Below are positions 6,774-43,347 of a stretch of DNA of 43,347 nt, in pieces; position 1 is the first letter of the stretch; each line of letters begins with the position of its first letter. The translations under genes were made by a program, and so were the position numbers. Location: positions 1 to 43,347 of the forward strand of contig CAIMFR010000072.1 of the NCBI GenBank assembly GCA_903840375.1, read 5' to 3'. This stretch comes from Candidatus Adlerbacteria bacterium. GTDB taxonomy: Bacteria > Patescibacteriota > Minisyncoccia > Phycocordibacterales > SBAW01. The notes under the pieces were generated by a model, which was given only the letters and a program-made list of their open reading frames with translations, was not told the DNA's origin and made no database searches.

Positions 6774-6823
6774 ACCTGAACAGGATAGTACGAGAATACC
6801 ACGTATGCTATACTTTTTCAAAA

Positions 6824-8443
6824 ATGGATAACGCTCGTCTCCACCTAACCGACCGGCAACTCTATGACCTTGAACTCTTGCTGGTTGGAGGCTTTGCGCC
6901 ACTCACGGGGTTTTTAACAGAAGAAGAGTATAACTCTGTTGTCGATGACATGCGACTTCCGTCCGGCAAACTCTGGCCGATGCCTATCGTGCTCGATGTC
7001 GCATCAGCTGCGCAGTATGCGAAAGATCAACGAATTATTTTATGCGACCAGTCGGATAATCCGCTCGCGTATTTCACGATCTCGTCCATCTGTCAGCCGG
7101 ACAAACAGCGCGAAGCTTTCAATGTATATGGCACGACGGACGACACACACCCAGGCGTCCGATATCTCATGCACCACACGGGCTCGGTCTATCTCGGCGG
7201 CAAAATCGAACACATCGCACTTCCGCATCATTATGATTTTGCCGACATACGCCGCACACCGGCAGAACTGCGCGAAATATTTGCAAAGCGCGGGTGGAAT
7301 AAAGTCGCCGCATTCCAAACGAGAAATCCTGTGCACCGAGCGCACTTCACGCTCATGCAGCGCGCGCATCGCGAGAATGATATCAACGTTCTTCTTCATC
7401 CGGTCGTCGGCCCGACAAAAGAGGGCGACATCGACTACGTGACGCGCGTCAAAAGTTACAAACAACTTTACGAAGCTCGCATGAAAGATTTTGCGGAACT
7501 TTCACTGCTGCCGCTTGCAATGCGCATGGCAGGACCGCGCGAAGCGTTGTGGCATGCGCTCATTCGAAAAAATTACGGCTGCACACATTTCATCGTCGGG
7601 CGCGACCATGCCGGACCGGGCAAAGATAAAAATGGCGTTCCTTTTTACGGACCATACGACGCGCAAGAGCTCGCGCTTGCCCACCAAAAAGATCTCGGAA
7701 TAATTATTCTTCCACAACAGGAAATGCTCTATGTTCCGAAAGACGATACGTATCGCTCATGGCAGGAGATTCCCGCCGGAACAGAAACAAAAAACATTTC
7801 CGGCACGGCATTCCGTTCGATGCTTGCCGCCGGAGATCCCGTGCCCGAATGGTTTTCATTTCCGGAAGTCGTAGAGACATTGCGTGAAGGCGTGTCACAG
7901 CGCAGCAGAAAAGGCTGCACAATATTTCTCACTGGTTTGCCGTCCTCCGGCAAGTCCACCATTGCCGCCATTCTTGCAGGAAAACTTCGCGAGCTGCACG
8001 ACCGCAATGTTTCTCTTCTCGACGGCGACGTCGTGCGGCAACACTTGTCGAAAGGTCTCGGATTCTCGCGCGAGGATCGTGTTGAAAATATAAAGCGAAT
8101 CGGTTTTGTAGCATCGGAGATAACGAAACACGGCGGCGTTGCCATATGCTCCGCTATCGCGCCATACGCGGAATCGCGCGACCACAATCGTCAGACGATC
8201 GATCAGCACGGCGCATACATAGAGGTACATGTGGCCACGCCGCTCGCGGTGTGCATCGAGCGCGATGTTAAAGGTCTGTATAAAAAAGCACAAGCGGGGA
8301 TCATAAAACATTTCACCGGCATCGATGACCCGTACGAAGCACCGGAAAATCCGGAGGTGACGATAGACACCACGGACGAAACGCCGCAGCAGTCGGCAGA
8401 GCACATCATAGAACTCCTACGAAAACTCTCGGTAATTAAATAA
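6824..8443 (+). CDS. sat/cysC: Bifunctional sulfate adenylyltransferase / adenylylsulfate kinase (PAPS synthase)
   Basis: The start is ATG 6824 (MDNARLHLTDRQLYDLELL...). ATP sulfurylase motifs are QTRNPVHRAH (7316-7345), HPVVGPTKEGD and VGRDHAGPG. The C-terminal APS kinase part has the P-loop GLPSSGKST (7934-7960), LDGDVVRQ and FSREDRVENIKR. Confidence 0.9.
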   Translation: MDNARLHLTDRQLYDLELLLVGGFAPLTGFLTEEEYNSVVDDMRLPSGKLWPMPIVLDVASAAQYAKDQRIILCDQSDNPLAYFTISSICQPDKQREAFNVYGTTDDTHPGVRYLMHHTGSVYLGGKIEHIALPHHYDFADIRRTPAELREIFAKRGWNKVAAFQTRNPVHRAHFTLMQRAHRENDINVLLHPVVGPTKEGDIDYVTRVKSYKQLYEARMKDFAELSLLPLAMRMAGPREALWHALIRKNYGCTHFIVGRDHAGPGKDKNGVPFYGPYDAQELALAHQKDLGIIILPQQEMLYVPKDDTYRSWQEIPAGTETKNISGTAFRSMLAAGDPVPEWFSFPEVVETLREGVSQRSRKGCTIFLTGLPSSGKSTIAAILAGKLRELHDRNVSLLDGDVVRQHLSKGLGFSREDRVENIKRIGFVASEITKHGGVAICSAIAPYAESRDHNRQTIDQHGAYIEVHVATPLAVCIERDVKGLYKKAQAGIIKHFTGIDDPYEAPENPEVTIDTTDETPQQSAEHIIELLRKLSVIK

Positions 8444-10706: not shown

Positions 10707-10720
10707 GATCCGATTCCCTT

Positions 10721-22915: not shown

Positions 22916-22925
22916 AGTATATACT
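22916..22925. promoter_or_regulatory. Palindromic AGTATATACT that offers a TATACT -10 box in both directions
   Basis: This is a perfect 10-bp palindrome in the 18-nt gap between the divergent fba and kinase genes. On the plus strand, TATACT is followed by 8 nt and then ATG 22934. On the minus strand, TATACT abuts ATG 22915 and lies 6 nt from ATG 22909. There is no SD on either side. Confidence 0.35.
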
Positions 22926-22933
22926 AAAAATGT

Positions 22934-28808: not shown

Positions 28809-28811
28809 AGA

Positions 28812-29264: not shown

Positions 29265-29285
29265 AAAATTAGTACGTTCATTTGT

Positions 29286-30308: not shown

Positions 30309-30344
30309 ATTCTTCTAGAATATCACATCGTTAGAAATAAAAAC

Positions 30345-32210
30345 CTACTGTTGTTTGGAATAAAGGATGCGTGCATCGACGTAGTCCGGCTTCAACACAA
30401 GTGCGCGATATGCAAACGCGCGAACATTTCCGACATCTCCAACCGCCTCGGCAAGCTTTGCCTGCAGGAAGAACGGGAACGGGTTGGAAGGTTCTAGCGC
30501 TATGGCATGCGCATATGCATCGCTGCCCTGTTGCGGCGCACCGGCAACCTTAGCAAGCGCCAACTGCGCATACACATTGCCAAGCACTATCCAATTTAGA
30601 ACATTGGCCGGTTCCATATCGACCGCCTTTCGCGCATTTTTTACCGCAGCTTGCGCGTATATGCCAAAGCCTGCCGCAGATTCTTCTTTCGGCATAGAAG
30701 TATCGACGACCAGCTGTGCCATACGCTCCTGTTGAACTTCTGAAAGCGCTCGATAGTACACGGGCTGCGGAAAAATACTGACCGCTTTCGATATCAATGC
30801 CTGGCTGGCATCAACATTTTGATTCTGCATTACCTGTTCAACACCTCCGTTATAGAGCACCACTGAATAAGTGCGAATGATCAAACATACCAATAAGATC
30901 ACGCATACCGATAACACCATGACTCCGGCAAGCCATGGCTTAGTCTTGGAGACGAGAATGAGTCTGCGAAACTTATCTGTATCAATGGTCCATGCCGTGG
31001 CGATACCACTAACGGCGACGATAGCCACCAGACTGATCATGTTCGGCATATACCCTATGAATGCCAACCATCCGTACATGGCGGCAAAAAAACTCACGCA
31101 CAACAAACACCTATCCTCGGTTTCGTCTAAGGTCACGACTCGCCGCCAACCACTCCGGATGGCGAGCACGAGCATTGCCAATGCTGCGACAATCCCTAGG
31201 ATACCGACTGTAACCGCGACCGAATCATACAGACCGACGCCTTGCGTGTAGGTCATATTCCACAGCGGAGTTTTGTTCACGGACACAGGCTTGTAAAGTT
31301 CCCACGCCTGCGCATACGTGTTCGGACCGGTTCCGACAAAAGCCCTAATAGGGCTGGCTCTATATGATGCCGCGACAACCGCAACCGCATCTGAGAATTG
31401 CGGAGATACAGGCATGCCGGCTGACATACGTGGAAATGGAATACTGTTTCCGCAGAAAAAGAGTAGCAACGAAGCGATGCCGACGGCACAAAACAAACCA
31501 GCAGAAGAACGGTGATGCGCGCGGAATCGCTCGATACACATCAGTATTGCGACTATACCTACTGAGCACCAAACAAATGTGACCGGCGCGAATAAAAGAA
31601 AGGTAGCGCACAACAAGGTTGATACAGTGCAGGCAAAACGGCCGATGGGGTTAAGTGAAAAATATTTTGGAAGTGCGAGCGACAGAACTAACGCAAATCC
31701 CGCCATGAATGTTACATCGGACATCGACGATATGCCGGCCGCTTCATGCGCGACAACAGATCGAAGTATGGCTATGAACAAATCCGCAACAACGACCAGT
31801 GTTGTGGTCGCCATCATTGCAAACAAAATCGCTCTGACTCGTAAACCGTTACGCAGCCACACGATGGATAACCAAAAAAGCGCCAAGAGCGCAAGTACTG
31901 ATGCAACTGTTCCAGCTTCCAGATCAAAACCGTCAAATGAAAAACGTCGCGAGATGGAGAAAAGAGTCGAGATCAAGAATATAGCAGCAACGAGCGCCGG
32001 AAATATGACCGGCTTGGCATATACAATACGCAACCCGCCGGCGAACAATGCAACATAACCAACCACAATACCGCACAGTACGAGGAGCACATAGAAATAT
32101 GCAGTACTAAACAAAGAAGAAAATACCGTAAGGAACGGCATGAGGAAAAACGGCATTATTCCAATTGCCAAAGTATAAAAAAGCTTAAGATGATGTTGTC
32201 TTGTAATCAT
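30345..32210 (-). CDS. Polytopic membrane protein, O-antigen ligase/polymerase-like (Wzy_C-type), with C-terminal TPR repeats
   Basis: 621 aa with at least 10 predicted TM segments. A large loop carries FVGTGPNTYAQAW, which resembles the G-x-G-x-G-x-F loop of Wzy_C proteins. The C-terminal ~170 aa has TPR-like repeats (NWIVLGNVYAQLA, AYAHAIALEPSN, AYRALVLKPDY). Confidence 0.55.
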   Translation of the reverse strand: MITRQHHLKLFYTLAIGIMPFFLMPFLTVFSSLFSTAYFYVLLVLCGIVVGYVALFAGGLRIVYAKPVIFPALVAAIFLISTLFSISRRFSFDGFDLEAGTVASVLALLALFWLSIVWLRNGLRVRAILFAMMATTTLVVVADLFIAILRSVVAHEAAGISSMSDVTFMAGFALVLSLALPKYFSLNPIGRFACTVSTLLCATFLLFAPVTFVWCSVGIVAILMCIERFRAHHRSSAGLFCAVGIASLLLFFCGNSIPFPRMSAGMPVSPQFSDAVAVVAASYRASPIRAFVGTGPNTYAQAWELYKPVSVNKTPLWNMTYTQGVGLYDSVAVTVGILGIVAALAMLVLAIRSGWRRVVTLDETEDRCLLCVSFFAAMYGWLAFIGYMPNMISLVAIVAVSGIATAWTIDTDKFRRLILVSKTKPWLAGVMVLSVCVILLVCLIIRTYSVVLYNGGVEQVMQNQNVDASQALISKAVSIFPQPVYYRALSEVQQERMAQLVVDTSMPKEESAAGFGIYAQAAVKNARKAVDMEPANVLNWIVLGNVYAQLALAKVAGAPQQGSDAYAHAIALEPSNPFPFFLQAKLAEAVGDVGNVRAFAYRALVLKPDYVDARILYSKQQ

Positions 32211-32224
32211 TGCTGTAACTCTGT

Positions 32225-33475
32225 CTATTGTGCAGCATCGACCGGGGGTGTGCTAGACGAATCTGCAGGGGCGACAGGAGACACGTCGGTCGGCGCAGAT
32301 GGATCTGCGGGAGTGATCGCGTCTGTGGTCGGAGATGTATCTGTGGAAGTAGTAGCGGGAGAACTCGTGTCCGGCGGAGCCGTAGGAACCACAGAATCCG
32401 GCGTCGATGACGATGACGAAATATTGTCTGCCTGAGGAACAATCGGAGTCGTTGCAGGAGTGGAAGTATCAGCCGGGGTCTCGGGCACCGCGACTGTCGG
32501 CAAAACAGGTACGGCGATCGGTATCGTCGACGGGTCAATCGGCGGACCCTTTAGGGGGTCATAAACAATGACCGTGCGTTTAGCAACGGAAGTATTGCCA
32601 GCATGATCGACCGCAGTGTACGTTATGGTGAATTGCCCCGGTTTCGATGTATCAATGGAACCTGTTCCCTGTGTGCTGTAATTTACATCCCGAGTTATGT
32701 TGTCGGTCACAAATGCTCCAAGGTCCATATAGGTTGAACCGACCGGTATCTGTGCCGGATTCTTTCCGAGGATCTGTATCGTCGGTGCGATCGAGTCGCC
32801 GCCTTTGCCTGTTACGGTGGTCGCGACGCCGTCGCCGGCAATACCGCCGGAGGATGGCGATACGCCCGGCGTACCTGATACTCCTGTGGCACTGCCGCCG
32901 TCATCGGGCACTATCGTCGCAGGCTGCGCGACGACCGGAACATAACCCGGCAAGATACTTTCCTTCGAATCAAGGAACTTGCCGACAAGACCTCCGTATA
33001 CGGTCGCGACTACAGCCTGGCTCACACCGCTCTTCCGCTCAATATCCTGCACACGTTGCAGGTACGAGAGCTGCCAGTTCATGACATCCTTAAGCTGCCT
33101 TGTCACATAAAGACCAAGATCCTGCCCTGCAAGGACGTTCTTTGGCACGGTGATGCTATTTAGTTCGGCAACTTGCTGCCAAACATACTCTTTCAGATCA
33201 ATAGTGGTCAACTTATACGCAACGTAATAATTATCGTTATCTTCGGTTACTCCTGTTATTTGTATCTTAGGCGCGTATGTCGATAAGTCGACATTTACTA
33301 TGTATGAATTATCCACAGACTTTATCGTCTGTTGCGTAGACAAAACAGCGTTGGAAACATCAGCACGAACCTCGGGACTCGCGGCTAAAGCGCCGCTGCA
33401 GGACAAAAAAAGCAAAGCAACGCCTATCGAAACGGCGTTATTATATTTTATAAAGTCGAGAAATTTTCCTCCCAT
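32225..33475 (-). CDS. Surface protein with a signal anchor, an Ig-like (DUF5011-type) domain and a Ser/Thr/Pro-rich C-terminal tail
   Basis: 416 aa with an N-terminal hydrophobic segment (AVSIGVALLFLSCSGALA). APTIQILGKNPAQIPVGSTYMDLGAFVTDN...FTITYTAVDHAGNTSVAKRTVIVYD is the classic DUF5011 pattern. The last ~110 aa are low-complexity (DTSTPATTP, DTSSPATTSTDTSPTTD, PADPSAPTDVSPVAPADSSSTPP). Confidence 0.65.
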   Translation of the reverse strand: MGGKFLDFIKYNNAVSIGVALLFLSCSGALAASPEVRADVSNAVLSTQQTIKSVDNSYIVNVDLSTYAPKIQITGVTEDNDNYYVAYKLTTIDLKEYVWQQVAELNSITVPKNVLAGQDLGLYVTRQLKDVMNWQLSYLQRVQDIERKSGVSQAVVATVYGGLVGKFLDSKESILPGYVPVVAQPATIVPDDGGSATGVSGTPGVSPSSGGIAGDGVATTVTGKGGDSIAPTIQILGKNPAQIPVGSTYMDLGAFVTDNITRDVNYSTQGTGSIDTSKPGQFTITYTAVDHAGNTSVAKRTVIVYDPLKGPPIDPSTIPIAVPVLPTVAVPETPADTSTPATTPIVPQADNISSSSSTPDSVVPTAPPDTSSPATTSTDTSPTTDAITPADPSAPTDVSPVAPADSSSTPPVDAAQ

Positions 33476-33507
33476 ACCTCAAAATATAATACCACGCTTT
33501 TTCTACA

Positions 33508-34332
33508 CTATTGCGCGCGTGGCCATGTCGGATGCCAAAATTCCCCGCCCTGATACTGTCTGTACAGATCATCCCCGAGCACCTTTGCCGCATCCTGCGA
33601 TATCTTGCCGAGCACCGGACGGATCTTGTGCATGCCGGGCATGTTATACGCTGACATATCATCTTCCTGCACCGTATTAGTGATGCCGGTAAAATTATGC
33701 GCAAATGTCGGCATATCGAAAAATGAATACACGCGTGCAAGCTCTCGCGCAGGGTCATTCACAAGGTCGTCATACTCCACAAAAAGAATATTCTGTGGAT
33801 AGCGTATAAAGCCGTCGTGCAACACCGACCACGACTGAAAGACATGTCCGTCCTTACTCATCAGCAACCTACAGCGATTGCTATCGTTCAGCGGCTCACC
33901 AAGTGAAATGAGGCTTTGGTCGATAAAAGAGACGGTATCCGGATTCTTCCGAACCAACGCGATGAATGATGCGAGAATGTCTGCGATCGACCGAACCGTG
34001 CACACCAGCTTTGGCATCTCGCCGAGCGCCAGTGTGAGCCTATCCTGATTGACGGGGTTCGGCCACGCGCGGTTTTTATCAAAAATAAAAGGCTTGTCGA
34101 TGTGTGCGTAAAATCCTTCAACAATGCCGCGCAAAACGGACTCTATTTGCCCGGGGACTGCATACGCCTTCACATGTTCTGCTGTGTCCCACATCTCCTT
34201 CGTACCATGCACCAGTCCGACAAGCGGAGACGAAGGTGATGCGTAGATGTCCGGGTTCTGGGAAAGAATAGACGCGAGAACAGTGGAGCCGGTACGCGGC
34301 AAACCTGAAAGAAAGTAAAAATGTTTTTTCAT
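33508..34332 (-). CDS. PAPS-dependent sulfotransferase-family protein
   Basis: The start is ATG 34332 and overlaps the upstream stop (ATGA at 34329-34332). The track start at 34353 is TTG. The 5'-phosphosulfate-binding loop GLPRTGST lies at 34282-34305 in the context YFLSGLPRTGSTVLASIL. A downstream block, VRSIADILAS, resembles the 3'-phosphate-binding motif. Confidence 0.75.
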   Translation of the reverse strand: MKKHFYFLSGLPRTGSTVLASILSQNPDIYASPSSPLVGLVHGTKEMWDTAEHVKAYAVPGQIESVLRGIVEGFYAHIDKPFIFDKNRAWPNPVNQDRLTLALGEMPKLVCTVRSIADILASFIALVRKNPDTVSFIDQSLISLGEPLNDSNRCRLLMSKDGHVFQSWSVLHDGFIRYPQNILFVEYDDLVNDPARELARVYSFFDMPTFAHNFTGITNTVQEDDMSAYNMPGMHKIRPVLGKISQDAAKVLGDDLYRQYQGGEFWHPTWPRAQ

Positions 34333-36821
34333 AAGTGGAATACAGTCTTCCAAAATTGTTCCGGACCATATTTCTCTGAAGCTGCCTTGTGGCCGGCGGA
34401 GGCGATGACCGCGCGCTCGTCTTCATGTGCGAGATAATATCGCACCTTCTCCAATAGATCATCTACTGTGGCGAACGAAACATATTCTTTGCCGTCCACG
34501 AATAGCCGCGACGTTTCCGGATTCGATTGTTCGAGAAGCATCGCACCGCACAACATCGTCTCGAACACGCGGCCTTTGAGCTGATGCGTCTCGTGAGATG
34601 AGCGAGAAAAATTGAGCACGATCTTGGACCGGCACAAGACATCGACATATCGCTCGATCGACACGCGTGTGTCCGGTGTATTTCCGCCCAGTATCTCGAC
34701 AGGGACACCTGCATTGCGAAGCGCGTCCAACATGACGCGACGGTCTCGATGTGCACCCTCTATCGTTCCCGCAAAAGATACACCGATGTTGCGAACACTT
34801 CCGACATCACGGAAAAGGCGCGTGTCACACGGAAACCACAAGCTATGGATGCGCGAAGCGACCGACTCGTCATAGCCGTTGATCGCGCTGCAGTGTGCAC
34901 GATATTCGCCGTCATTTCTATCCTGCAACACAACATGCGCACCGGCGGACAGCACACTATCAATAGACGGAAACCACATCGGATCTGTATCGGAAAATTG
35001 CGCAACCACCGGAATTCCAAGCGTCTGAATGATAGATGCGATGACCATGCGTTCCTGCTCGCGCAATCCGTGGTATGCGTAAAGCGCAATAAAATTAGGC
35101 CGTGTCTGCGCACAATAATCAAAAAGCCCCGCAATACCGCCGCGATACTTGTGTACGGTCGCAAGACCGGTCGATTCCAGAGAACCCCATGCGTAATGCT
35201 CGATCACATATTCCTCCGGTACTACACTCACAAAAAGTACGGACGGCCGTGACGTATTCGCCTGCCTCACTACATGCGGTTCTGCATTTGCATCCCACAA
35301 TGCTTGCCAATCTTCATACTGTGGAGGCGTGTCTTGCATGTGGAATGCCAGTGACGGGATCGGAGTAAAGAGTATCACACCTCCTTGTGTCCATATGCGA
35401 TTGATCGTCGTTTCCTCCGTCACGGTCGGGTCAATACCATAACGAGTTAGCGCATCGAAATTGCTGCGAAATTTTCTGAAAGTCGTAGCGTGGACGAGTA
35501 ATGTTCCGGTCGTATGAACATTGGTGCGCCATGGACGTTTTACGCCTGGCACTATTCTGCACTGGTCCATACGCACATAATTGTTCGGATCGTCACAAGG
35601 AGCTACTCCTACTTCAAGTTCGCCCAACTTTGCTCTAAATGCAAAATATGATGATAACATGCCGAAAATTGCTTCCGGATAATGCAGATAATCATCCTCT
35701 ACAAAATAGATAAGATTTTTACACCGATCAGCTTTGCGATATGCCGCCGCAAGCGATGCGCCGTTTCCGGTACTCTCCAAGGCTTCGATCTCTACAGGAT
35801 GCTTTAGTGCCTCTGTTATCTCTCGCATTTTGGAAAGCAGCTCCGGCGACGAATGATCGTCGATGATGTGCAGGGCCAGCGGTTCGGTGCAACGATTCAT
35901 ACTCGCAACGAGTGAACTTATACAGCGCGTGGTAATTTCTCGTTTCGATACAGTAACGAACCTCTTTCCGGCATGCACTGAATGCACTCTATCGCATGTG
36001 CGCAAAATAATATCTAGAACCACCGGCGGCTGCGGTGTCTGCCACCATGCGGGACTTTCTTCGACATCAGAGTAGAGCGGCGGCGGTACTTCGCCGTACT
36101 TCGCATACCATGCAACATCGAATTCTAATGCTTGCTTTTCATCATTCCACCGATACGAACTGGAGCCCATGCGCACATTCTGATATTGTGCTTTCTTTTT
36201 TCCGGAACTGTTCAGCCACGTAAGATGTTTTATGTAAGCTACATCTTCAGGAATATCTAGATGGTTAGAACTTCTTGTCGTGTGCCCGTCGAGATATTGC
36301 AATTCATTGTCCCAACTGAATTTTTCTATCCCGCCATATCGATCGGTCCAAAAAATGCGCGGCGGTCGAAAGCCCTTGATCCAATGCTTGCCGTCGAAAA
36401 TATAATTCTTGAAATGTATCCGGTAGAGATCCGGTAGAGGATTCGCCAATACAAAGTCAATTATTTTTTTTATAGAATCGACTGTATAAAACTCGTCGCC
36501 GTCGAGGATCCAAATGCAATCTACACCTGCCGCCAGTAGTGCTTGCAGGACAGCCGTCCGCGCTTCCTGCTCCTGCATCGGAACATCTGACGCCTTATAC
36601 CAATCAAAAACATCTTTATTCTCCGCGAGGCTATTCCTCGTCTCATCGTCGTCATTTTTATAGCCAAGCGTTGCATACTCGGCAAACTGGCAATTCATCG
36701 CGGCAATATACACCTCGTGTCCCAACTCCGGCGCGATCTTCTTAAACTCGCGCCACGGTGCCAATACATCCGGCAAAGTCTCCGCGCAACCATAGAATAA
36801 CCCTACGATGCCTATCTTCAT
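34329..36821 (-). CDS. Three-domain glycosyltransferase: N-terminal GT-A (DGD), central GT-A paralog module (EDD), C-terminal CgeB/Glyco_trans_1_2-like domain
   Basis: 830 aa. Residues 1-255 carry CIWILDGDEFY. Residues ~266-512 (35286-36026) are collinear with the whole protein encoded at 40204-40977. The C-terminal ~300 aa end in the pattern LNFSRSSH...KGRVFETMLCGAMLLEQ...VSFATVDDLLEKVRYYLAHEDER...AGHKAASEKY, typical of CgeB-like GT domains. Confidence 0.7.
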   Translation of the reverse strand: MKIGIVGLFYGCAETLPDVLAPWREFKKIAPELGHEVYIAAMNCQFAEYATLGYKNDDDETRNSLAENKDVFDWYKASDVPMQEQEARTAVLQALLAAGVDCIWILDGDEFYTVDSIKKIIDFVLANPLPDLYRIHFKNYIFDGKHWIKGFRPPRIFWTDRYGGIEKFSWDNELQYLDGHTTRSSNHLDIPEDVAYIKHLTWLNSSGKKKAQYQNVRMGSSSYRWNDEKQALEFDVAWYAKYGEVPPPLYSDVEESPAWWQTPQPPVVLDIILRTCDRVHSVHAGKRFVTVSKREITTRCISSLVASMNRCTEPLALHIIDDHSSPELLSKMREITEALKHPVEIEALESTGNGASLAAAYRKADRCKNLIYFVEDDYLHYPEAIFGMLSSYFAFRAKLGELEVGVAPCDDPNNYVRMDQCRIVPGVKRPWRTNVHTTGTLLVHATTFRKFRSNFDALTRYGIDPTVTEETTINRIWTQGGVILFTPIPSLAFHMQDTPPQYEDWQALWDANAEPHVVRQANTSRPSVLFVSVVPEEYVIEHYAWGSLESTGLATVHKYRGGIAGLFDYCAQTRPNFIALYAYHGLREQERMVIASIIQTLGIPVVAQFSDTDPMWFPSIDSVLSAGAHVVLQDRNDGEYRAHCSAINGYDESVASRIHSLWFPCDTRLFRDVGSVRNIGVSFAGTIEGAHRDRRVMLDALRNAGVPVEILGGNTPDTRVSIERYVDVLCRSKIVLNFSRSSHETHQLKGRVFETMLCGAMLLEQSNPETSRLFVDGKEYVSFATVDDLLEKVRYYLAHEDERAVIASAGHKAASEKYGPEQFWKTVFHL

Positions 36822-36849
36822 GTTCGCCAGTATACCGCATCGCGGCTAA

Positions 36850-37707
36850 TTATAGATATTTTTCAGTAAAATAGTTCGTCCACTCAGGAATTCTGTCGTA
36901 CTGGTGGACGATGGCAAAGGGTTTACCGTCTGCATTACGCACGGTAGAACCGTCGAATGTGGGCCGTGATTCCAACAGGTATGGCTCGTAGGTATCGCAC
37001 ATATCTGGCTGCGATGTGACCTGTGCATTAAGTACCCAGGCATCGGCCAATGTCTGGTGCAACGTGACCGACCACCACGGCTCGATCGACATCAAGATAA
37101 TATAGGCCGCCTGATCTGCGCCGAAATAGGGAACTCGCACACACATCTCGAAGACCATAAGACACATATCACGCACGTAGTCCGCATATCCGGCTATCAC
37201 ACCGCCGCATTGCACCTCCTTATGTTTAACGATGTTGTAAAAATAATCGCCGAAATTTTTGCGTACTTCATTCGCATTCCACTCTTCATGCTCGACAAGG
37301 ATACGCTCGCCTGCCGCAACCAATTTTTTACCTGACGGAATAAGATTCTTTTCCAACCATGGAATCGGGTTTTGTTGGAACACCAGATCGCTCACGTCAG
37401 CGAACACGACGAACCGGTATTTCCCTTCCTGCTTTTGCAAAAAATCGAACACATGCAGAAAACGCTCGATCACCTTCGGCGAGTTCGGCCCGGTGCGCAT
37501 AGGAACGACCATGACGCCCTCGCCGCGTATCTGTTCCAGCAGAGCTGTTTCGGCATCAAGCGCTATCAGACAAATGTCGCCGGTGAATCCCGTCTGCTTG
37601 ATAGACCGTATCCACGGTTTGAGCACCGGCAGGTCGTAGCCGAAAAACACACCTATCACAAGATCTTTTTTATCAGAAGGTGAGTGTGGTGGCATGGATG
37701 TTAGCAT
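36850..37707 (-). CDS. Hypothetical protein, possibly a GT-A nucleotide-diphospho-sugar transferase
   Basis: The start is uncertain (ATG 37707 preferred; ATG 37695 and GTG 37734 are possible). YRFVVFADVSDLVFQQNP is a DxD-like block after a Rossmann-like N-terminus, and there is a later GADQAAYI block. The family assignment is tentative. Confidence 0.4.
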   Translation of the reverse strand: MLTSMPPHSPSDKKDLVIGVFFGYDLPVLKPWIRSIKQTGFTGDICLIALDAETALLEQIRGEGVMVVPMRTGPNSPKVIERFLHVFDFLQKQEGKYRFVVFADVSDLVFQQNPIPWLEKNLIPSGKKLVAAGERILVEHEEWNANEVRKNFGDYFYNIVKHKEVQCGGVIAGYADYVRDMCLMVFEMCVRVPYFGADQAAYIILMSIEPWWSVTLHQTLADAWVLNAQVTSQPDMCDTYEPYLLESRPTFDGSTVRNADGKPFAIVHQYDRIPEWTNYFTEKYL

Positions 37708-37720
37708 ATATAGTAGTGTC

Positions 37721-39016
37721 TCACCGGCGAACACACCAGCGCTCGCCTGCCGACAAACCGTCTTTGATCGAGTCGGCTATGCCTTGGAACTTCCAGCGGG
37801 CATACCTGCCGACCGGATAAATATTTTTCGCTTCCAAAGCCGCGATCGCCTTTTCTCGCCAATGCGAGTCGGGGTAAGACCACGTGTAAGCAACATCTAT
37901 CCAGGTAGCATCCACAACTTCCGTCTCCTTTATCCAGCCCCATTGTGTTAATTCTTCAACAACGGAACACGAAATTTTCTCGATCTCTTCCGCGTCAGGA
38001 CAAGCACCTCCGACATATGCCTTTTCTACATAGATACCAACCCTGTCACCTCGTGATGAAAGCGGTAAAAATGAGGCGTCTACATTGCTATAGAATCCTA
38101 CGCGATGAAAACCGGCGCGCGAATGCGGAATATATACCCAATGTTCTTTCGGACAAAATTCGCCGGAGACAGCTCCAATATTTATCACCAGAACAGAAGT
38201 GTGCGGGTCAGGCCGCTCATCAACATTCACCTGTGCGATCCGCAAAGTCTCGTGCAGCGGCAGCGTAGAAATGATATTGTCGTATCGGATGCTTGAGTTG
38301 CTTGAGTCGGAAAAAATAACCTCATGTTTCTTTGTGTCGATCGACTCAACTCGCTTACCGTATCGCACATCACATGCATCGGCCAACTCTCGGACAAGCG
38401 CGTCTAATCCGCGTTCGGGATATAAAAAGCTTGTGTTATATCCGACATTTGCCTTTTGTGAAGAATTACGCGGCGTCTTATATGAGTCCTGCGGCGCGAT
38501 CTTTGTGTAAAGTCCCGCAGTATACAGGTCATGGAACGGGTGGAAAAATGTCTCACAAAGAGTCTTGCCGAAACTTTCTTCAAGCCACTCCGACATTGTG
38601 CCAACTTCCCTTTTGTCACTTTCTTTTTTTAACATTTCTTCAGCGACAGACGCGCGTTCCATGTCCGATAAATGAGAAACATGATTTTGCAGCGGATATG
38701 GCACGAGCAGTTTTCTTTCGTGGAAAAATATCCCGGATCTTCGTCCATGCGAGTTGCACGCTGCCAATCGCTGAATCAATTCTTGAATTGAAGAATCGCC
38801 GCCGAATATCCAATGACCTCCGCCGATCTCAAAACGGTACGCTTCATGATCTTCGGGTGTGTGCGTGAGTCGCTCCTTCGCACCACGCCGCATGTAGTAT
38901 GAAGAACAAATGCCTCCGGCATCTTTTCTAGCTTCATAGACGGGAGCGCCGGAAGCATACCCGGCGGAAAGACCGGTTATGCCTGCACCAAGGATCACTG
39001 TCTCGCTTTTTTGCAT
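37721..39016 (-). CDS. FAD-dependent oxidoreductase, UDP-galactopyranose-mutase / amine-oxidase-like
   Basis: The start is ATG 39016 (MQKSETVILGAGITGLSAGY is the GxGxxG dinucleotide fold). Later blocks (GGGHWIF, FFHPFHDLYT, FLYPERGLDAL, C-terminal VGRYARWKFQGIADSIKDG) resemble UGM-like flavoenzymes. Confidence 0.6.
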   Translation of the reverse strand: MQKSETVILGAGITGLSAGYASGAPVYEARKDAGGICSSYYMRRGAKERLTHTPEDHEAYRFEIGGGHWIFGGDSSIQELIQRLAACNSHGRRSGIFFHERKLLVPYPLQNHVSHLSDMERASVAEEMLKKESDKREVGTMSEWLEESFGKTLCETFFHPFHDLYTAGLYTKIAPQDSYKTPRNSSQKANVGYNTSFLYPERGLDALVRELADACDVRYGKRVESIDTKKHEVIFSDSSNSSIRYDNIISTLPLHETLRIAQVNVDERPDPHTSVLVINIGAVSGEFCPKEHWVYIPHSRAGFHRVGFYSNVDASFLPLSSRGDRVGIYVEKAYVGGACPDAEEIEKISCSVVEELTQWGWIKETEVVDATWIDVAYTWSYPDSHWREKAIAALEAKNIYPVGRYARWKFQGIADSIKDGLSAGERWCVRR

Positions 39017-39021
39017 AATTA

Positions 39022-40200
39022 TTATTTTTTGTCCGAGACAGCAGGGAAGAATATCGGCACATTTCTTCCGTTCAACAAACGTTGTGCATCTACATTTACC
39101 ACGCCATTTTCCAAAAATGCAGTCCAATGTTTCCTCAATACTTGGTGATGCGTTATGAAAGAAGAACTACCCGCATCACCTTCTTTCCATTCCCTATTCG
39201 GGTTTTTAAATTCTCTTGCCAACTTCCCGTATCTACTTGTATACGGCGCATCGTGTGCGTTCGGCATTAAACTCAGGACCACCTCACGGCCGTTGTTTAT
39301 AGTAAATTTCGAATAATAATATGTCTCAAACAATTCTAGGAACAGATCTTTGTCTATCGACACTTCATCACCACGTATAAAACAAACAAGATCTCTCCCA
39401 CTTTTTAAGACATACTGCAGCGCATCGGATATCGTGTTTACCAAAGTTACTTTGCAGCGACCAAGCCATGACATCTCACCGGTATCGCATTTAGTATCGC
39501 CAACAACGACAACGTTAAATACAATGTCCGACCGGTGCGACAAAACAAAAGATATGGCTTGAGAAACCGCATGCATCTGCGACCCGGACGTCCACACAAT
39601 ATCAAACTGATACATATTACTCACATCATTTGCCCCGAACACATATGGCCAGAGACGCTCCATCACATAGCCTTCGAGCGGATTGACCGAATAATTAACT
39701 TTCGTTATGAGTTCCTGATACTGAGACTTCGGACGCCTCAGTATCATCTCGCGCGGTACTATGTATTGCGCGCCGGTCGAATAACTCAAAGACTCCATGT
39801 CGCGAAGGCCGATCAAACTCCCCAAACTAAGCAGGTATTCTTTGAATCCGGGCCAGTTATATTCCGCATCCAGCGTTTCCCTTTTCCAACATTCGGAAAG
39901 CGGAACGACAACATTGGAGTCAGCGTGATCGGACAAAATAGTGAACAGGTCATAACAATGGTCTATCGGATACCCCTGCAAAAGTACAAGATAATCCGGC
40001 AACGAATCATAATTTTCTATAATGTGATGCAAGTATGTCTCGGATTCTCTCCCGAAATTTGGCCTGCGTATGACCGGAAGATCCATCTCAAGACCCGTCG
40101 CACTTGCGCCTTTGTTGTACACAACAACGGGCATCTTTATATTGCGTACCCAATTGATATCCTCTTCGAATCTCGAGATTACAACTTGATATGTGGACAT
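39022..40200 (-). CDS. Two-domain hypothetical protein; the N-terminal half is DUF3431-like
   Basis: 392 aa. VVISRFEEDINWV, NFGRESETYLHHIIENYDSLPDY and ERLWPYVFG resemble the DUF3431 pattern (N-x-G-R-E-x-x-x-Y-L...NYD.L, ..LW..IFG). I do not recognise the C-terminal ~190 aa. Confidence 0.4.
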   Translation of the reverse strand: MSTYQVVISRFEEDINWVRNIKMPVVVYNKGASATGLEMDLPVIRRPNFGRESETYLHHIIENYDSLPDYLVLLQGYPIDHCYDLFTILSDHADSNVVVPLSECWKRETLDAEYNWPGFKEYLLSLGSLIGLRDMESLSYSTGAQYIVPREMILRRPKSQYQELITKVNYSVNPLEGYVMERLWPYVFGANDVSNMYQFDIVWTSGSQMHAVSQAISFVLSHRSDIVFNVVVVGDTKCDTGEMSWLGRCKVTLVNTISDALQYVLKSGRDLVCFIRGDEVSIDKDLFLELFETYYYSKFTINNGREVVLSLMPNAHDAPYTSRYGKLAREFKNPNREWKEGDAGSSSFITHHQVLRKHWTAFLENGVVNVDAQRLLNGRNVPIFFPAVSDKK

Positions 40201-40203
40201 AAA

Positions 40204-40977
40204 TTATTTATACATCTTCCACAATGGCTTCCAATCTTCATAGACTGGCGGCGTATCTTCCATGTGGAATGCAAGTGCAGGTATCGGAGTGAACAAAGTC
40301 ACGCCACGCTTCCATATTTGATTGATCGTAGACGCCTCCGTCACTGACGGATCGATTCCATAACGGCTCAAGGCGTCAAATGTGCTTCTAAATGTTGCAA
40401 GCGTCTTTGGCGTTATGAGCACCGTTGCGGTTGTCTTCGTGTGAGTTCTCCATGGGCGCCCCTGTCCTGGCACAATGCGACATACATCGGCGCCTTCATA
40501 GTAGTTCCACGGGCTGTCGTATGGCGCGATAGCTACTTCAGCGCTGCCAAGTTTAGCTGAAAAAAATCGATACGCGGCAAGCATTTCCGGCAATGCTCCC
40601 GGATAGTGCAGATAATCATCTTCTACAAAATAGATCAGATTTTTATACTGATCGGCCATGCGATACGATTCCGCAAGTGATGCAGGATTACCAGTTTCTC
40701 GCAGTGGCACGATCTCAGCCGGATGAAATGAACGTGCAATGCTGTCGCGAATAAGCGCCAGAGTCTCAGCCGATGAATGATCATCGAGAATGCGGAGTAC
40801 AAGCGACTCGGGACACAGGTTCATACTCGCTATCAACGAACGGAGACAGCGCGCGATCAATTCCCTCTTTGGCACTTTTATAAACCGCTCGCGGTTGTGT
40901 ACGGAGGAGTGGTCGCAAGTACGGAGGATTATATTGAGAGCGGGCGGCACCACCTGTTCTGAACTCGCTTTATCCAT
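40204..40977 (-). CDS. GT-A fold (family-2-like) glycosyltransferase, paralog module
   Basis: 257 aa with the blocks ILRTCDHSS, ILDDHSS, KNLIYFVEDDYLHYP, CRIVPGQGRPWRT and LFTPIPALAFHMEDTPPVYEDW. By eye, over half the residues are identical to residues 266-512 of the 830-aa protein. Confidence 0.65.
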   Translation of the reverse strand: MDKASSEQVVPPALNIILRTCDHSSVHNRERFIKVPKRELIARCLRSLIASMNLCPESLVLRILDDHSSAETLALIRDSIARSFHPAEIVPLRETGNPASLAESYRMADQYKNLIYFVEDDYLHYPGALPEMLAAYRFFSAKLGSAEVAIAPYDSPWNYYEGADVCRIVPGQGRPWRTHTKTTATVLITPKTLATFRSTFDALSRYGIDPSVTEASTINQIWKRGVTLFTPIPALAFHMEDTPPVYEDWKPLWKMYK

Positions 40978-40992
40978 GTATATGTTCGTATT

Positions 40993-42255
40993 TTATTTTT
41001 TAGCTGAAAGGAATGTTTGCACGTGCTCCGCAGCGAGGTCTATCGCTTCATTCCACCTGCCTATCTTCGCCTGCTTCGTAACCAACACCGAATCGTACCA
41101 ATTGCTCCTCGGAAGTATCGTCTCATCCGCCCACGGATAATAGGAAAGTATCGGGGTTATTACGATCGTATTCACCCCCATTGCCGCCGCCGCATGCACA
41201 ATAGACGTGCACGATGACACAACGACATCCATCTGCGAGAGTGCCGCGCAAGTATCTTCCCAAGTAACCAACTGTGAAGAGAGATCCCTGATATACGGAG
41301 GACAAAACTCAGTCCCCTCGTCACGCTGGAATGAGAACAGATCCCCCATGCCGCGAAGCGCGTTGAACAATAATTCCGGCGGAAACTTGCGACGTTGTTC
41401 ATCTTCAAATTTTGGATTGCCGCGCCAACGAATACCGATGCGGGGTTTTGTTTTCTTGCCCAAACGCTCAGCCCACTCGGCAGCCTTGTATGGAATAGGT
41501 TTAAGATATGGCCTGCCGTCAAGTTTTTCCATATGCAACAAAGCTGGCACCGCCATACCGGGAACCCACACATCGTGAGGAACAATATTGGAAGTTGCAC
41601 CTACAACACCCTCGGCCTGACTAAGCGTAGCAACAAGCGACTGGTTTGTGCGGATGGTAACTATGGCTCCGAGCGCGGCCAGATCTCGCGCATGTCGCGC
41701 TTCTATTATATGGTCGCCGAGACCTCGCTCAAGATTGAGGAGCACGGATTTCCCTTTGAGATCAGAAACACCGTCCCACCGCCGAGTCGTTAAGTGGAAA
41801 TCATTGTCGCCCCACACACCTATCGACCGCCCATGTTCCAGCAAAGGAAAGGCATCTTTTATATTGCCGCGACGCAAGGCGTGCCAACCAAGGTTATAAA
41901 ATTTCTCCGGACTGTCTTCTAGCTTTCGTATGACAGCCTCCGCCTCGCTGAACTTACCCTGCCAAACAAGTGCCAGAACCATGACTTGCATGTCAGAGGT
42001 GTCTCCAAGAGCACGAGAGTCGCTCACACGAGCACGATTCAACAATTCTTCCGCACGTTCAGGATCGCCGCCGTATATATGACAGCGTGCTGCATTAAGA
42101 AACGAACCGAACGTACCGTCGGTCAATCCGATGACGGCTTCCGCAACATGTGCGGCTTCCGCAAAGCGTTTACAGTCAAAAAGCTCTTTTGCGAGGACAT
42201 CTGTACGCTCTATGAATCGCATCACGAACTGTGCTTGTGCTTCTTCCGTATTCAT
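40993..42255 (-). CDS. TPR-repeat protein with a C-terminal GT9-like (heptosyltransferase-fold) glycosyltransferase domain
   Basis: The start is ATG 42255; the track start at 42261 is TTG. The N-terminal ~150 aa has TPR-like helices. The C-terminal blocks PRIGIRWRGNP, LFSFQRD and DVVVSSCTSIVHAAAAMGVNTIVI follow the GT9 pattern. Confidence 0.55.
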   Translation of the reverse strand: MNTEEAQAQFVMRFIERTDVLAKELFDCKRFAEAAHVAEAVIGLTDGTFGSFLNAARCHIYGGDPERAEELLNRARVSDSRALGDTSDMQVMVLALVWQGKFSEAEAVIRKLEDSPEKFYNLGWHALRRGNIKDAFPLLEHGRSIGVWGDNDFHLTTRRWDGVSDLKGKSVLLNLERGLGDHIIEARHARDLAALGAIVTIRTNQSLVATLSQAEGVVGATSNIVPHDVWVPGMAVPALLHMEKLDGRPYLKPIPYKAAEWAERLGKKTKPRIGIRWRGNPKFEDEQRRKFPPELLFNALRGMGDLFSFQRDEGTEFCPPYIRDLSSQLVTWEDTCAALSQMDVVVSSCTSIVHAAAAMGVNTIVITPILSYYPWADETILPRSNWYDSVLVTKQAKIGRWNEAIDLAAEHVQTFLSAKK

Positions 42256-42281
42256 CACCAAGCATTGTACCTAAATAATAT

Positions 42282-42629
42282 TTATTTATCTATGATGAGG
42301 ATCGGCTCGCCGCTTTGCCGATCAAAAAATGATAAAGATTGACCGGTTTCCTTCACGATAAAATTTTCGAACATCTTTTCACTTAATACAGTATCACCTG
42401 TAAACATGTCCATAACAGAACTCAGTACTTTTGTCGCAACAAGCGCACCTCCGCCCAATATACAAGCAGTAAGAACCCTCCGACGATTTCTGTTAACGCC
42501 ATTTTCGATCGTCGCACCGAAAAACTTGTCTGACAGTACATCCAAAACTATAAGAGTCTTGCGATGGACATCGCGGATCTTCTTATTACTCTTTATTTTA
42601 TTGCTTATGTCAGGAACAAGATTCTTCAT
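42282..42629 (-). CDS. Small hypothetical protein with an internal twin-arginine-like motif and a hydrophobic segment
   Basis: 115 aa. NRNRRRVLTACILGGGALVATKVLS (RR at about 42471-42491) resembles a Tat signal but begins near residue 46. The gene lies 7 nt downstream of tatA. Confidence 0.45.
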   Translation of the reverse strand: MKNLVPDISNKIKSNKKIRDVHRKTLIVLDVLSDKFFGATIENGVNRNRRRVLTACILGGGALVATKVLSSVMDMFTGDTVLSEKMFENFIVKETGQSLSFFDRQSGEPILIIDK

Positions 42630-42636
42630 GTCTTTA

Positions 42637-42849
42637 TTATTTCTTCTTCGACTCGACCGCCGCGCGCACGCCTTTCACTTCCTCTTCAACCTTGCGTATT
42701 TCATCCTCGATCTCCAGTTTTCCCTTCTTGAACTCGCCGCTGAACCTGCCGAGCGTGCGCGCAAAATCACTCACCTTTTCACTTCCAAACATAAACACAC
42801 CGAACACTACCAATATTATTAAAACCTCCGGTATTCCAAGTCCAAACAT
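42637..42849 (-). CDS. tatA: Twin-arginine translocase TatA/E-family protein
   Basis: 70 aa. MFGLGIPEVLIILVVFGVFMFGSEKVSDFARTLGRFSGEFKKG has the canonical TatA TM plus amphipathic helix (the G-x-P-E and FG hinge). Confidence 0.85.
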   Translation of the reverse strand: MFGLGIPEVLIILVVFGVFMFGSEKVSDFARTLGRFSGEFKKGKLEIEDEIRKVEEEVKGVRAAVESKKK

Positions 42850-42959
42850 ATAATTATCATATCGTTACAATTAATAAAATCAGAAATTTGTTCTATTCCT
42901 GTACGAAGTAATTATCTCGTCCGCAACGTGCAAAGTCAACGATCCACACCTGCATTACC

Positions 42960-43347
42960 TCATATCTGGTCGATTCTTAAGACCTCAGCACCGTTCTTGT
43001 CATAAACGCTGATAGCCGGACCAATCGATGGAGCTGTAGTAGATGAAATGGAGAATCCGTCACCGATGTACATAACAGATGTTGAGCCAAGATACATGTT
43101 GTTTTCGACTTCCAGGTTGCCGGTGCCGGGTAGAGTTATTAGCGGACACGCTCCTCCGGAACATACGAAGAAGTTGTTGTTGTTGAGATATATGTTCCCG
43201 CTTTGGGAATTTATGGTGAGGTCTCCTATAGCATCTACCTGCATTGAAGCGTACCGAGTGGTATCGTATGCAATAACAACCTGATTTTGCGTCGTTGAAA
43301 CTGCTTGCTGTACCGAAAGAACGGTACCGGGGGTCGATGTTCCTATG
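42960..43347 (-). CDS. 3' end of a larger secreted/surface protein gene (C-terminal fragment)
   Basis: The frame is open from the window edge (43347) to the stop at 42960-42962. The product is Gly/Asn/Ser/Thr-rich and looks beta-rich (...NQVVIAYDTTRYASMQVDAIGDLTINSQSGNIYLNNNNFF...). The internal ATG at 43244 is probably not the real start. Confidence 0.45.
   Translation of the reverse strand, partial: IGTSTPGTVLSVQQAVSTTQNQVVIAYDTTRYASMQVDAIGDLTINSQSGNIYLNNNNFFVCSGGACPLITLPGTGNLEVENNMYLGSTSVMYIGDGFSISSTTAPSIGPAISVYDKNGAEVLRIDQI

Follow-up and report, generated by a model that had tools for sequence, protein, structure and literature searches.

A sulfotransferase and a TPR-containing glycosyltransferase at the core of a possible cassette for sulfated surface glycoproteins in a Candidatus Adlerbacteria genome

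The contig CAIMFR010000072.1 of Candidatus Adlerbacteria bacterium (assembly GCA_903840375.1), which was analyzed over a stretch of 43,347 nucleotides (nt; the window), contains on its minus strand a series of nine closely spaced genes, named here g1 to g9, that runs from position 42255 down to 30345 and combines glycosyltransferase (GT)-like enzymes with a sulfotransferase (g7), a secreted protein with a Ser/Thr/Pro-rich tail (g8) and a membrane protein (g9). Our tentative reading is that this cluster constitutes a cassette whose soluble enzymes act in the cytoplasm to glycosylate and sulfate surface proteins encoded with them. Possible, and more doubtful, is the wider proposition that g1 and g7 represent a widespread two-enzyme system, often contained in one fused polypeptide, by which giant surface proteins and adhesins would acquire sulfated O-glycans, or a sugar and a sulfate, in both the candidate phyla radiation (CPR) and the Proteobacteria. 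The occurrence of sulfated surface glycoproteins is put forward as a well-supported and testable hypothesis, which rests entirely on inference from sequence. A first-pass annotation of the same DNA had taken the nine genes for an island that builds a glycan, sulfates it and attaches it to the co-encoded surface protein or to another envelope acceptor, and our analysis supports that interpretation in part.

In the proposed sequence of events the tetratricopeptide repeat (TPR) domain of g1 would bind the acceptor protein in the cytoplasm and a first sugar would be placed on Ser/Thr, the glycan would be extended by soluble GTs and then sulfated by g7 with 3'-phosphoadenosine-5'-phosphosulfate (PAPS) from the Sat/CysC protein, after which the modified protein would be exported. 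The likely acceptor would be g8, via its S/T/P-rich tail, and possibly also the large S/T/G-rich protein that is encoded upstream of g1. The membrane protein g9, which is paired with g8, would more likely act extracellularly, with g8 or the envelope as its target (in anchoring or ligation), than serve as the oligosaccharyltransferase of the pathway. A sequential cytoplasmic route, modelled by analogy on OGT, FlmG, TibC/Aah and HMW1C, is favoured over a route via a lipid carrier and an O-oligosaccharyltransferase by the pairing and fusion of g1 with g7, the OGT-like architecture of g1 and the apparent solubility of the enzymes. The lack of phosphoglycosyltransferases and flippases in the window and in the related loci scanned and the constant presence of large secreted neighbours point in the same direction.

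Conserved core and recurrent domain fusions

The cluster was compared with 87 related loci, which are numbered here with the prefix L. In one other genome (GCA_039741135.1, L007/L008) the gene order is large S/T/G-rich protein, TatC, TatA, small Tat-signal protein, g1, g7, g8, g9, with identities to the window proteins of 62% for g1, 68% for g7, 53% for g8 and 39-44% for g9, and the module includes no GT besides g1. A further locus (L010) contains g7 (72% identical), g8 and g9, followed, as in the window, by the genes for GAPDH, RpiB, RPE and transketolase. Judged from this synteny, the conserved core consists of g1, g7, g8 and g9. The named relatives of the window proteins are from Patescibacteria, Saccharibacteria and Paceibacteria metagenome-assembled genomes (MAGs).

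The association between g1 and g7 extends to the level of single polypeptides. In at least 23 protein clusters, with lengths of 564-608 amino acids (aa), a g7-like sulfotransferase at the N-terminus is fused to a g1-like domain at the C-terminus (clusters within P0135-P0238, of which P0151 has 413 member sequences). The sulfotransferase half of these fusions is 30-39% identical to g7 and the GT-like half is covered by no Pfam model. A fusion of 618 aa is encoded in a Saccharibacteria MAG (L016:5808-7664), and separate g1-like and g7-like genes are adjacent in L011, L017 and L033. In other CPR loci g7 homologs are found together with genes for GT41, GT2-like enzymes of the g2 type, GT25, DUF3431, RGP-family proteins and methyltransferases (true Glyco_transf_41 genes adjoin g7 homologs in L004 and L006), and in those loci they always adjoin large RCC1-repeat or S/T/G-rich proteins of 1428-1940 aa.

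Within the Proteobacteria a sulfotransferase that is 30-35% identical to g7 adjoins an open reading frame (ORF) of at least 1000 aa in eight of the 12 loci inspected. The loci with adjacent ORFs of 1000-3000 aa (L020, L023, L024, L028, L047, L060, L076 and L081, with the sulfotransferase at around 10001-10800) are from Dyella, Rheinheimera, Acidovorax, Gilvimarinus, Undibacterium, Pelomonas and Pseudomonas. Four of the neighbours were scanned and showed the domains of an ESPR/PATR autotransporter, a DUF4347-cadherin/Big-OmpA protein, a DUF4347-fn3-IPTL-CTERM protein and an RTX protein. The likeness of the sulfotransferase to the CurM type had brought up non-ribosomal peptide or polyketide synthases (NRPS/PKS) as the identity of the giant neighbours, which was rejected in view of the adhesin-like domains of the four scanned. 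The proteobacterial sulfotransferase is closely preceded by one to three tandem genes for proteins of ~165-195 aa (L023:8158-9786, L028:8363-9959, L040:9094-9681, L024:8800-9372), which share the pattern ...FAPRGWxxCNGQ...LPDLRGR...GGSQPHxNxQP...FPSR(N/S) and by eye look like phage-tail-collar or MdpB-type proteins. Two more sulfotransferase-like P-loop ORFs were seen by eye upstream in L023.

The nine genes might also form no single system, being a co-directional string of unrelated functions whose adjacency reflects gene density in a compact genome. In line with this, the minus-strand run passes through housekeeping genes on both sides, and short gaps and missing terminators are usual in reduced genomes. 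The fusion of g7-like and g1-like domains, the preservation of the order g1-g7-g8-g9 at 39-68% identity in another genome and the recurrence of the same families around g7 homologs in L004, L006, L009, L011 and L016 nevertheless make such a coincidence very improbable, and the fusions and the conserved synteny have largely refuted it already.

All nine ORFs were recovered as annotated before, and independent gene calls on identical ENA metagenome contigs returned the same genes, with only two differences in start position (g9 at M24, giving 598 aa, and g5 at 281 aa). By coordinates the gaps measure 3-36 nt. The ATGA overlap between g6 and g7 (34329-34332) was verified, as was the lack of terminator-like hairpins in the gaps: 22 were found within 28500-43347 and all of them are intragenic. 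The limits set to the island (42261 and 30345) did not hold. The co-directional run goes on 5' of g1 with genes for a Tat-signal protein, TatA and a large protein, and 3' of g9, after 36 nt, with GAPDH, RpiB, RPE and a split transketolase; the nine-gene island is open at both ends. The TACAAT box (42264-42269), noted before as lying 8 nt ahead of the first ATG, exists as a 9/12 promoter-like match. As a promoter of the island it does not hold: it lies inside a gap of ~20 nt directly behind the stop codon of the upstream Tat-signal gene and, given the upstream genes on the same strand, marks a tiny gap inside a longer co-directional run. Promoter-like matches are no commoner in the region than in shuffled sequence (27 versus 19.5 +/- 4.7), and the best one (TTGACT-17-GATAAT, 10/12) is located at 42939-42911, just upstream of tatA.

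Table 1. Features of the window and of the sampled g9-family loci
Feature	Position	Strand	Basis or remark
Large surface-protein gene, 3' end	42960..43347	-	runs off window edge; C-terminal 60 aa compared with L007 protein
TatA, twin-arginine translocase subunit, 70 aa	42637..42849	-	Pfam TatA_B_E 1.2e-7
Tat-signal protein, 115 aa, signal NRNRRRVLTACILGGGALVA	42282..42629	-	translation
g1, TPR + GT-B (GT9-like by fold)	40993..42255	-	Pfam TPR; AlphaFold2 model; Foldseek
g2, putative GT-A (GT2-like) glycosyltransferase	40204..40977	-	Glycos_transf_2; paralog of g6 middle domain
g3, DUF3431 protein	39022..40200	-	Pfam DUF3431 2.9e-16
g4, UDP-galactopyranose-mutase-like flavoenzyme	37721..39016	-	Amino_oxidase 2.4e-13; PDB matches
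g5, soluble protein without family match	36850..37707	-	gene caller start 37695
g6, three-domain glycosyltransferase, 830 aa	34329..36821	-	Pfam GT2 + Glyco_trans_1_2
g7, PAPS-type sulfotransferase	33508..34332	-	Sulfotransfer_3 + Sulfotransfer_1
g8, secreted Ig-like protein with S/T/P tail; candidate acceptor	32225..33475	-	Bact_surface_Ig-like 3.1e-17
g9, 13-TM protein, WaaL-like predicted fold, C-terminal TPR domain	30345..32210	-	AlphaFold2/Foldseek; hydropathy
Sat/CysC fusion, putative PAPS supply	6692..8443	+	Pfam PUA_2, ATP-sulfurylase, APS kinase
g9-family loci sampled	L091:8001-12055; L092:1404-5525; L093:376-4478

Outside the cluster, the ORF for fructose-bisphosphate aldolase at ~22046-23314 (422 aa) is probably over-extended, and on the identical contig the gene calls give an aldolase of 289 aa with, between it and kup, a PfkB-family kinase of 331 aa on the opposite strand.

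Enzymes of sulfation and glycosylation

The identification of g7 as a sulfotransferase in the first-pass annotation was borne out by matches above the cut-off to both Sulfotransfer_3 (3.6e-13, 50.7 bits with a cut-off of 27) and Sulfotransfer_1 (1.2e-11, 44.9 bits with a cut-off of 22). The GLPRSGST loop is kept in 33 g7 relatives, with G10, P12, R13, G15, S16 and T17 invariant, and so are R114 and S122 (R...S, eight residues apart). By sequence the loop and the R...S pair correspond to the canonical PAPS-binding motifs, the phosphosulfate-binding (PSB) loop and the 3'-phosphate-binding (3'PB) motif. A search of the PDB with the g7 family profile retrieved TPST1 (4.9e-13), the CurM/PKS sulfotransferase (4e-10) and TPST2 (1e-9), with the Stf-type 2ZQ5 (6.7e-5) far below TPST and the heparan sulfate 3-O-sulfotransferase at 0.012. 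The NCBIfam model for NoeE (NF052394) gave 24.5 bits versus a cut-off of 500 and matched only residues 6-35, the P-loop. The substrate class of g7 is not readable from homology.

The PAPS required would come from the Sat/CysC fusion, whose Pfam matches are unambiguous (PUA_2 1.9e-39, ATP-sulfurylase 6.1e-83, APS_kinase 3e-60). This connection had been proposed before and is corroborated by the surroundings of g7 relatives: CysD-CysN-APS kinase (APS, adenosine 5'-phosphosulfate) is encoded directly upstream of the sulfotransferase in L004, a sat/cysC gene whose product is 55% identical to that of the window directly precedes a g7 homolog in L027, from a Saccharibacteria MAG, and an APS kinase, CysDN or sat-cysC gene is located at most 10 kb away in about 15 of the 87 loci. 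The longest ORF for sat/cysC in the window (ATG at 6692) shares ~210 nt with the 5' end of the divergent pheT ORF (GTG at 6902); as the match to PUA_2 does not begin before residue 48, translation may in fact start at 6824 or later.

The PDB matches bring up a reading in which g7 sulfates side chains of the neighbouring surface proteins directly, for instance the tyrosines in the TEDxDNYY motif of g8, and the GTs act independently. The two TPSTs are the best solved relatives of g7, with the carbohydrate sulfotransferases at about 0.012; the element ITGVTEDxD(N/W)YYV is kept in all four g8-family proteins, and the proteobacterial sulfotransferase adjoins adhesin genes without g1/g2-like GTs. 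Yet when aligned with TPST1 the g7 family has 'sptS' opposite the 'GEET' segment that we take to carry the catalytic Glu, leaving Ser/Pro at the position of this Glu. Moreover, the tyrosines of g8 are preceded by Asn or Trp instead of Asp, the g8 motif is missing from the RCC1 and adhesin neighbours, and the recurrent fusion or adjacency with a GT-B domain, together with the GT-A, GT41 and GT25 genes in CPR loci, points to a sugar context. Considering these points, direct sulfation of the protein is unlikely.

For g1, Pfam TPR matches and an AlphaFold2 model that was built on 46 relatives (pLDDT 95.5, very confident) delineate an N-terminal TPR solenoid (~1-145) followed by a GT-B domain. When the whole architecture was compared by Foldseek, the top matches were the bacterial OGT 5DJS (1.3e-7), SPINDLY and XcOGT (5DJS, 7Y4I, 8DTF, 2VSN), and for the catalytic domain they were the GT9 protein 3TOV (TM-score TMt 0.53), WaaF 1PSW (0.50) and TibC 4RB4 (0.45). 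At the sequence level Glyco_transf_9 was matched weakly by 19 of the 46 relatives (best 1.3e-4) and the NCBIfam heptosyltransferase I model gave E=0.065 with g1; Glyco_transf_41 was not matched by g1, nor does it appear in the 25 families listed for the relatives. The previous description of g1 as a TPR plus GT9-like protein, comparable to FlmG, therefore stands for the fold and not for the Pfam family. As modelled, g1 is a TPR plus GT-B protein with a GT9-like catalytic domain, and a candidate protein O-glycosyltransferase.

The genes between g1 and g7 are more heterogeneous. The GT-A assignment of g2 holds by a margin of 0.1 bit (Glycos_transf_2, 23.4 bits versus a cut-off of 23.3); g2 and residues 266-510 of g6 are clear paralogs (phmmer, 1e-95) and g2 homologs occur in L004, L006 (3 copies) and L011. 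The three-domain GT was recognized correctly, with Pfam matches of g6 to GT2 (9.5e-9) and Glyco_trans_1_2 (8.4e-26) and the order GT2-like at the N-terminus, g2-like GT-A in the middle and Glyco_trans_1_2 at the C-terminus. The same holds for the DUF3431 protein g3 (PF11913, 2.9e-16, 60.3 bits versus a cut-off of 25, best stretch residues 8-75), for which no PDB match was obtained and no functional literature on the family was found. The label 'UGM-like' for the flavoenzyme g4 is reasonable: all 14 PDB matches are eukaryote-type UDP-galactopyranose mutases (UGMs; best 4DSG, 2.7e-11, residues 48-314), and besides Amino_oxidase (2.4e-13) there was no Pfam match to GLF and in NCBIfam only the 'hypothetical' PRK07208, below its cut-off. 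Probably, g4 makes a UDP-furanose such as UDP-Galf. The DUF3431 gene and the UGM-like gene form a pair in the window (39022-40200 with 37721-39016), and the g3 homologs in L006 and L009 adjoin an RGP-family (UDP-arabinopyranose-mutase-like) gene (L006:2917-4038 with 1943-2920; L009:8588-9733 with 9723-10703). The recurrent pairing with UGM-like or RGP-family genes implies that DUF3431 may use a UDP-furanose donor, and g3 is possibly a glycosyltransferase for a furanose sugar. No support was obtained for g5 as a GT-A-like protein, as it matched no GT family in Pfam, NCBIfam or the PDB sequences (the latter two gave nothing at all, and the one Pfam match, DUF1413, stayed below the cut-off at E=0.044) and has neither a paralog in the island nor a homolog in the related loci. 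By eye, with no transmembrane (TM) scan run on them, the translations of g1 to g7 are without hydrophobic segments.

The lowest GC content of the window is found at 38001-41000 (g2-g4; 0.46 versus about 0.51, a modest dip). Together with the absence of g2-g6 from the synteny with L007, this suggests that g2-g6 are a lineage-specific, lower-GC insert in an older g1-g7-g8-g9 module. Horizontal transfer or a mobile island was considered as well, and has only the modest dip over g2-g4 in its favour; no mobility genes are present among the island genes of the window.

An end product other than protein, that is a sulfated wall polysaccharide, glycolipid or exopolysaccharide (EPS) for which g8 and the other surface proteins are mere neighbours or polymer binders, is not likely either. 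Several GTs, a UGM-like mutase and a Glyco_trans_1_2 domain are the usual content of a polysaccharide cluster, the g9-family genes adjoin murJ in an envelope context, and the known sulfated glycans of bacteria are mostly lipo-oligosaccharides, lipopolysaccharides (LPS) and EPS. However, neither a phosphoglycosyltransferase or flippase nor a polymerase or exporter was seen, a single GT is all that the smallest conserved module (L007) contains, the arrangement of a sulfotransferase beside a surface protein recurs in unrelated phyla, and the architecture of g1 is that of a protein GT.

Surface proteins and the membrane protein g9

The description of g8 as an Ig-like protein with a Ser/Thr/Pro tail of ~110 aa proved accurate. 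It has a Sec-type signal (with ALA before and AS after the cleavage site, by eye), a conserved N-domain, an Ig-like domain and a tail of 111 aa that includes 17 S, 19 T and 25 P. Orthologs are encoded directly 3' of the sulfotransferase in L007/L008 (53% identical) and L010 (54%), and L016 has a homolog of the N-domain. Both orthologs keep the acidic YY motif and the P/T/S-rich tail, and the conservation of the latter would make g8 the obvious acceptor. The N-domain motif, which lies at residues ~73-88 of g8 and there includes TEDNDNYYV, reads ITGVTEDxD(N/W)YYV(A/S/D)Y across the family, being conserved in four out of four members (window, L007, L010 and the Saccharibacteria locus L016). The acidic run ahead of the two tyrosines resembles tyrosine-sulfation sites. 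A gene for a sortase lies at 1237-1893 of the window, but the g8 sequence ends in ...PPVDAAQ and carries neither an LPXTG-type motif nor an anchor at its C-terminus.

The large protein at 42960 and beyond aligns by eye over its C-terminal 60 aa with the C-terminus of the S/T/G-rich protein of 1799 aa that occupies the same position in L007, and the 115-aa Tat-signal protein is homologous to a protein of 108 aa that is encoded directly upstream of the g1 ortholog (L007:6451-6777). Neither of the two window proteins has a Pfam match. Genes for TatA/TatC have the same location in L007/L008, and in L006 they are close to the sulfotransferase. The C-termini of the Tat-signal protein (42282-42629) and the large protein (42960-43347) are similar by eye, ...SFFDRQSGEPILIIDK and ...SVYDKNGAEVLRIDQI, respectively, and this similarity is kept in L007; the common motif may be a sorting or assembly signal.

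The first-pass annotation had presented g9 as a Wzy_C/TPR membrane protein. The TPR domain and a WaaL-like fold were found, but the hidden Markov model (HMM) of Wzy_C (PF04932) was not matched at E<=0.1. The family is also outside the 25 most-matched families among 61 scanned members of the g9 family, so that at most four of these match it. Two of eight close relatives show sub-threshold matches (25.0 and 21.6 bits versus 31.7) that are full-length and in register, and both end at GxGPxxF, the most conserved motif of the g9 family. Searches of the PDB sequences returned TPR proteins only with g9 itself and nothing with a membrane-only family profile. In Foldseek the AlphaFold2 model of g9 (pLDDT 73) matched WaaL (7TPG_B, E 4.2e-4, TMt 0.60, 447 columns); the full-length search was dominated by TPR matches, with WaaL at rank 49 as the only natural membrane protein in the top 50. 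Hydropathy and charge predict that the N-terminus lies inside and that the protein has 13 TM segments; TM9 and TM10 would be joined by a large loop (257-326) on the outer side, as in WaaL, and the TPR domain would be external too. Alignments of 8 and 61 members, made with no residue-level superposition on WaaL, showed neither an invariant nor a near-invariant His or Arg. With 2678 representatives, mostly of about 780 aa, the family is large, and all three members sampled (~780-806 aa, membrane plus TPR) are encoded immediately upstream of murJ, which is followed by lepA and divIC in L091 and L092, while L093 ends at murJ. This suggests a housekeeping role of the g9 family in envelope or cell-wall assembly. 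From the model g9 is best described as a distant Wzy_C-superfamily relative within an envelope-associated family, and not demonstrably an O-oligosaccharyltransferase.

These data bear on the en-bloc route that had been proposed, in which the glycan would be built and sulfated on undecaprenyl-pyrophosphate, flipped, and moved to the g8 tail by g9 as an O-oligosaccharyltransferase of the PglL/PilO/WsaB type whose external TPR domain binds the acceptor. Its attraction lies in the WaaL-like fold of g9, the predicted outside location of the TM9-TM10 loop and the TPR domain, the in-register Wzy_C matches of two relatives and the adjacency of g8 and g9 in three genomes. The route is quite unlikely, as g9 and most of the 61 family members fail the Wzy_C HMM, the membrane-only profile retrieves no PDB sequence, no invariant His/Arg for a pyrophosphate donor was found, and the three sampled relatives have murJ (in two of them with lepA and divIC) as neighbours instead of glycosylation genes. 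In addition, L004, L006, L009 and L016 have the sulfotransferase, GTs and RCC1 proteins but no g9 homolog, and neither the window, as had been noted before, nor the loci scanned (L001-L010 and L016) contain a match to a phosphoglycosyltransferase or flippase family.

Several observations weigh against the cytoplasmic cassette that we favour. The families just mentioned may be encoded elsewhere in the genome, and the conservation of g9 together with g8, as well as its outward WaaL-like loop, would also fit a transfer step outside the cytoplasm. In g1 itself there is no Pfam match to Glyco_transf_9 (PF01075) and no Pfam threshold for a GT is reached. The g7 family is nearest to protein-tyrosine and polyketide sulfotransferases instead of carbohydrate ones. 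The previous proposal of a sulfated glycan is sustained in so far as a sulfotransferase is encoded among GTs beside an S/T/P-tailed protein in a genome with a Sat/CysC fusion, and weakened by the TPSTs being the nearest solved relatives; sulfation of a glycan, as opposed to the protein, is inferred. The proteobacterial sulfotransferases mostly occur without g1/g2-like GTs. Finally, the heavily glycosylated tail of g8 would have to pass the Sec system, which is plausible by analogy, as heptosylated autotransporters and HMW1 provide precedent for the Sec export of glycosylated protein.

Comparison with known systems

CPR bacteria live attached to host cells, which makes surface proteins central to their lifestyle. 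A strongly anionic, sulfated coat on S/T/P-tailed and giant repeat proteins would have a direct bearing on adhesion and host recognition, and such protein glycans would be a modification not yet described in this group. Members of the same sulfotransferase family adjoin autotransporter, cadherin-like and RTX adhesins in Pseudomonas, Dyella, Rheinheimera and Acidovorax, which can be cultivated and so make the hypothesis accessible to tests in tractable hosts. A second novelty would be the g9 family, as a large WaaL-fold/TPR family tied to murJ, with a possible activity in CPR envelope assembly.

The closest parallels in architecture to g1 are OGT/SPINDLY (GT41), including the Thermobaculum enzyme 5DJS and Xanthomonas XcOGT, which likewise have an N-terminal TPR solenoid followed by GT-B and are its top Foldseek matches. 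Enzymes of this type are soluble and cytoplasmic and glycosylate Ser/Thr of proteins. They differ from g1 in that the latter does not match the Glyco_transf_41 HMM, gives low whole-chain TM-scores (0.27-0.34) and has a catalytic domain closer to GT9. The GT-B domain of g1 superposes on those of 3TOV, WaaF and TibC (TMt 0.45-0.53), thus on GT9 and on bacterial autotransporter heptosyltransferases (BAHTs) such as TibC/Aah, which, ahead of export by Sec, modify Ser residues of large surface adhesins while these are still in the cytoplasm. In contrast to these, g1 fails the GT9 model of Pfam, has a TPR domain and is linked to a sulfotransferase. Caulobacter FlmG, likened here by architecture with no sequence comparison, is bipartite as well, with a TPR substrate-binding and a GT domain, and acts directly on a secreted protein (flagellins); the targets of g1 would not be flagellins, and no flagellar genes are present in the window.

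With WaaL and PglL/PilO/WsaB (the Wzy_C superfamily) g9 shares the polytopic fold, as modelled against WaaL 7TPG, and the large outward TM9-TM10 loop. The failed HMM, the lack of conserved His/Arg in the alignments, an extra TM13 and the external TPR domain set it apart.

The sulfotransferase g7 has the GxPRSG(S/T)T 5'-PSB loop and the overall length in common with TPST1/2. RaxST sulfates a secreted peptide in the cytoplasm (PMC4892823). The g7 family differs from TPST/RaxST (RaxST itself was not compared) in that the position of the catalytic Glu is not conserved and in its genomic tie to glycosyltransferases. It differs also from the carbohydrate sulfotransferases, as the NoeE match is weak and covers only a P-loop stretch of 30 residues, and 2ZQ5 ranks far below TPST. 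NodH, NoeE, LpsS and mycobacterial Stf0 are responsible for PAPS-dependent sulfation of glycoconjugates and have dedicated PAPS-synthesis genes nearby. Sulfated glycoconjugates of bacteria are mainly rhizobial Nod factors and LPS, mycobacterial sulfolipids and cyanobacterial EPS, and to our knowledge no sulfated glycans on bacterial proteins have been characterised.

Taken singly, the pieces are of known kinds: a PAPS sulfotransferase, GT-B and GT-A enzymes, a UGM-like mutase and a WaaL-fold membrane protein. In the literature searched we found nothing on sulfotransferases in CPR/Patescibacteria or on fusions between GT9 and sulfotransferases, nor the combination seen here in CPR and mirrored in Proteobacteria, in which a protein GT of the TPR-GT9-like type is coupled with, or fused to, a sulfotransferase related to TPST next to surface proteins. 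If the wider reading of g1 and g7 as a two-enzyme system is correct, this would be the first sulfated protein glycosylation pathway in bacteria.

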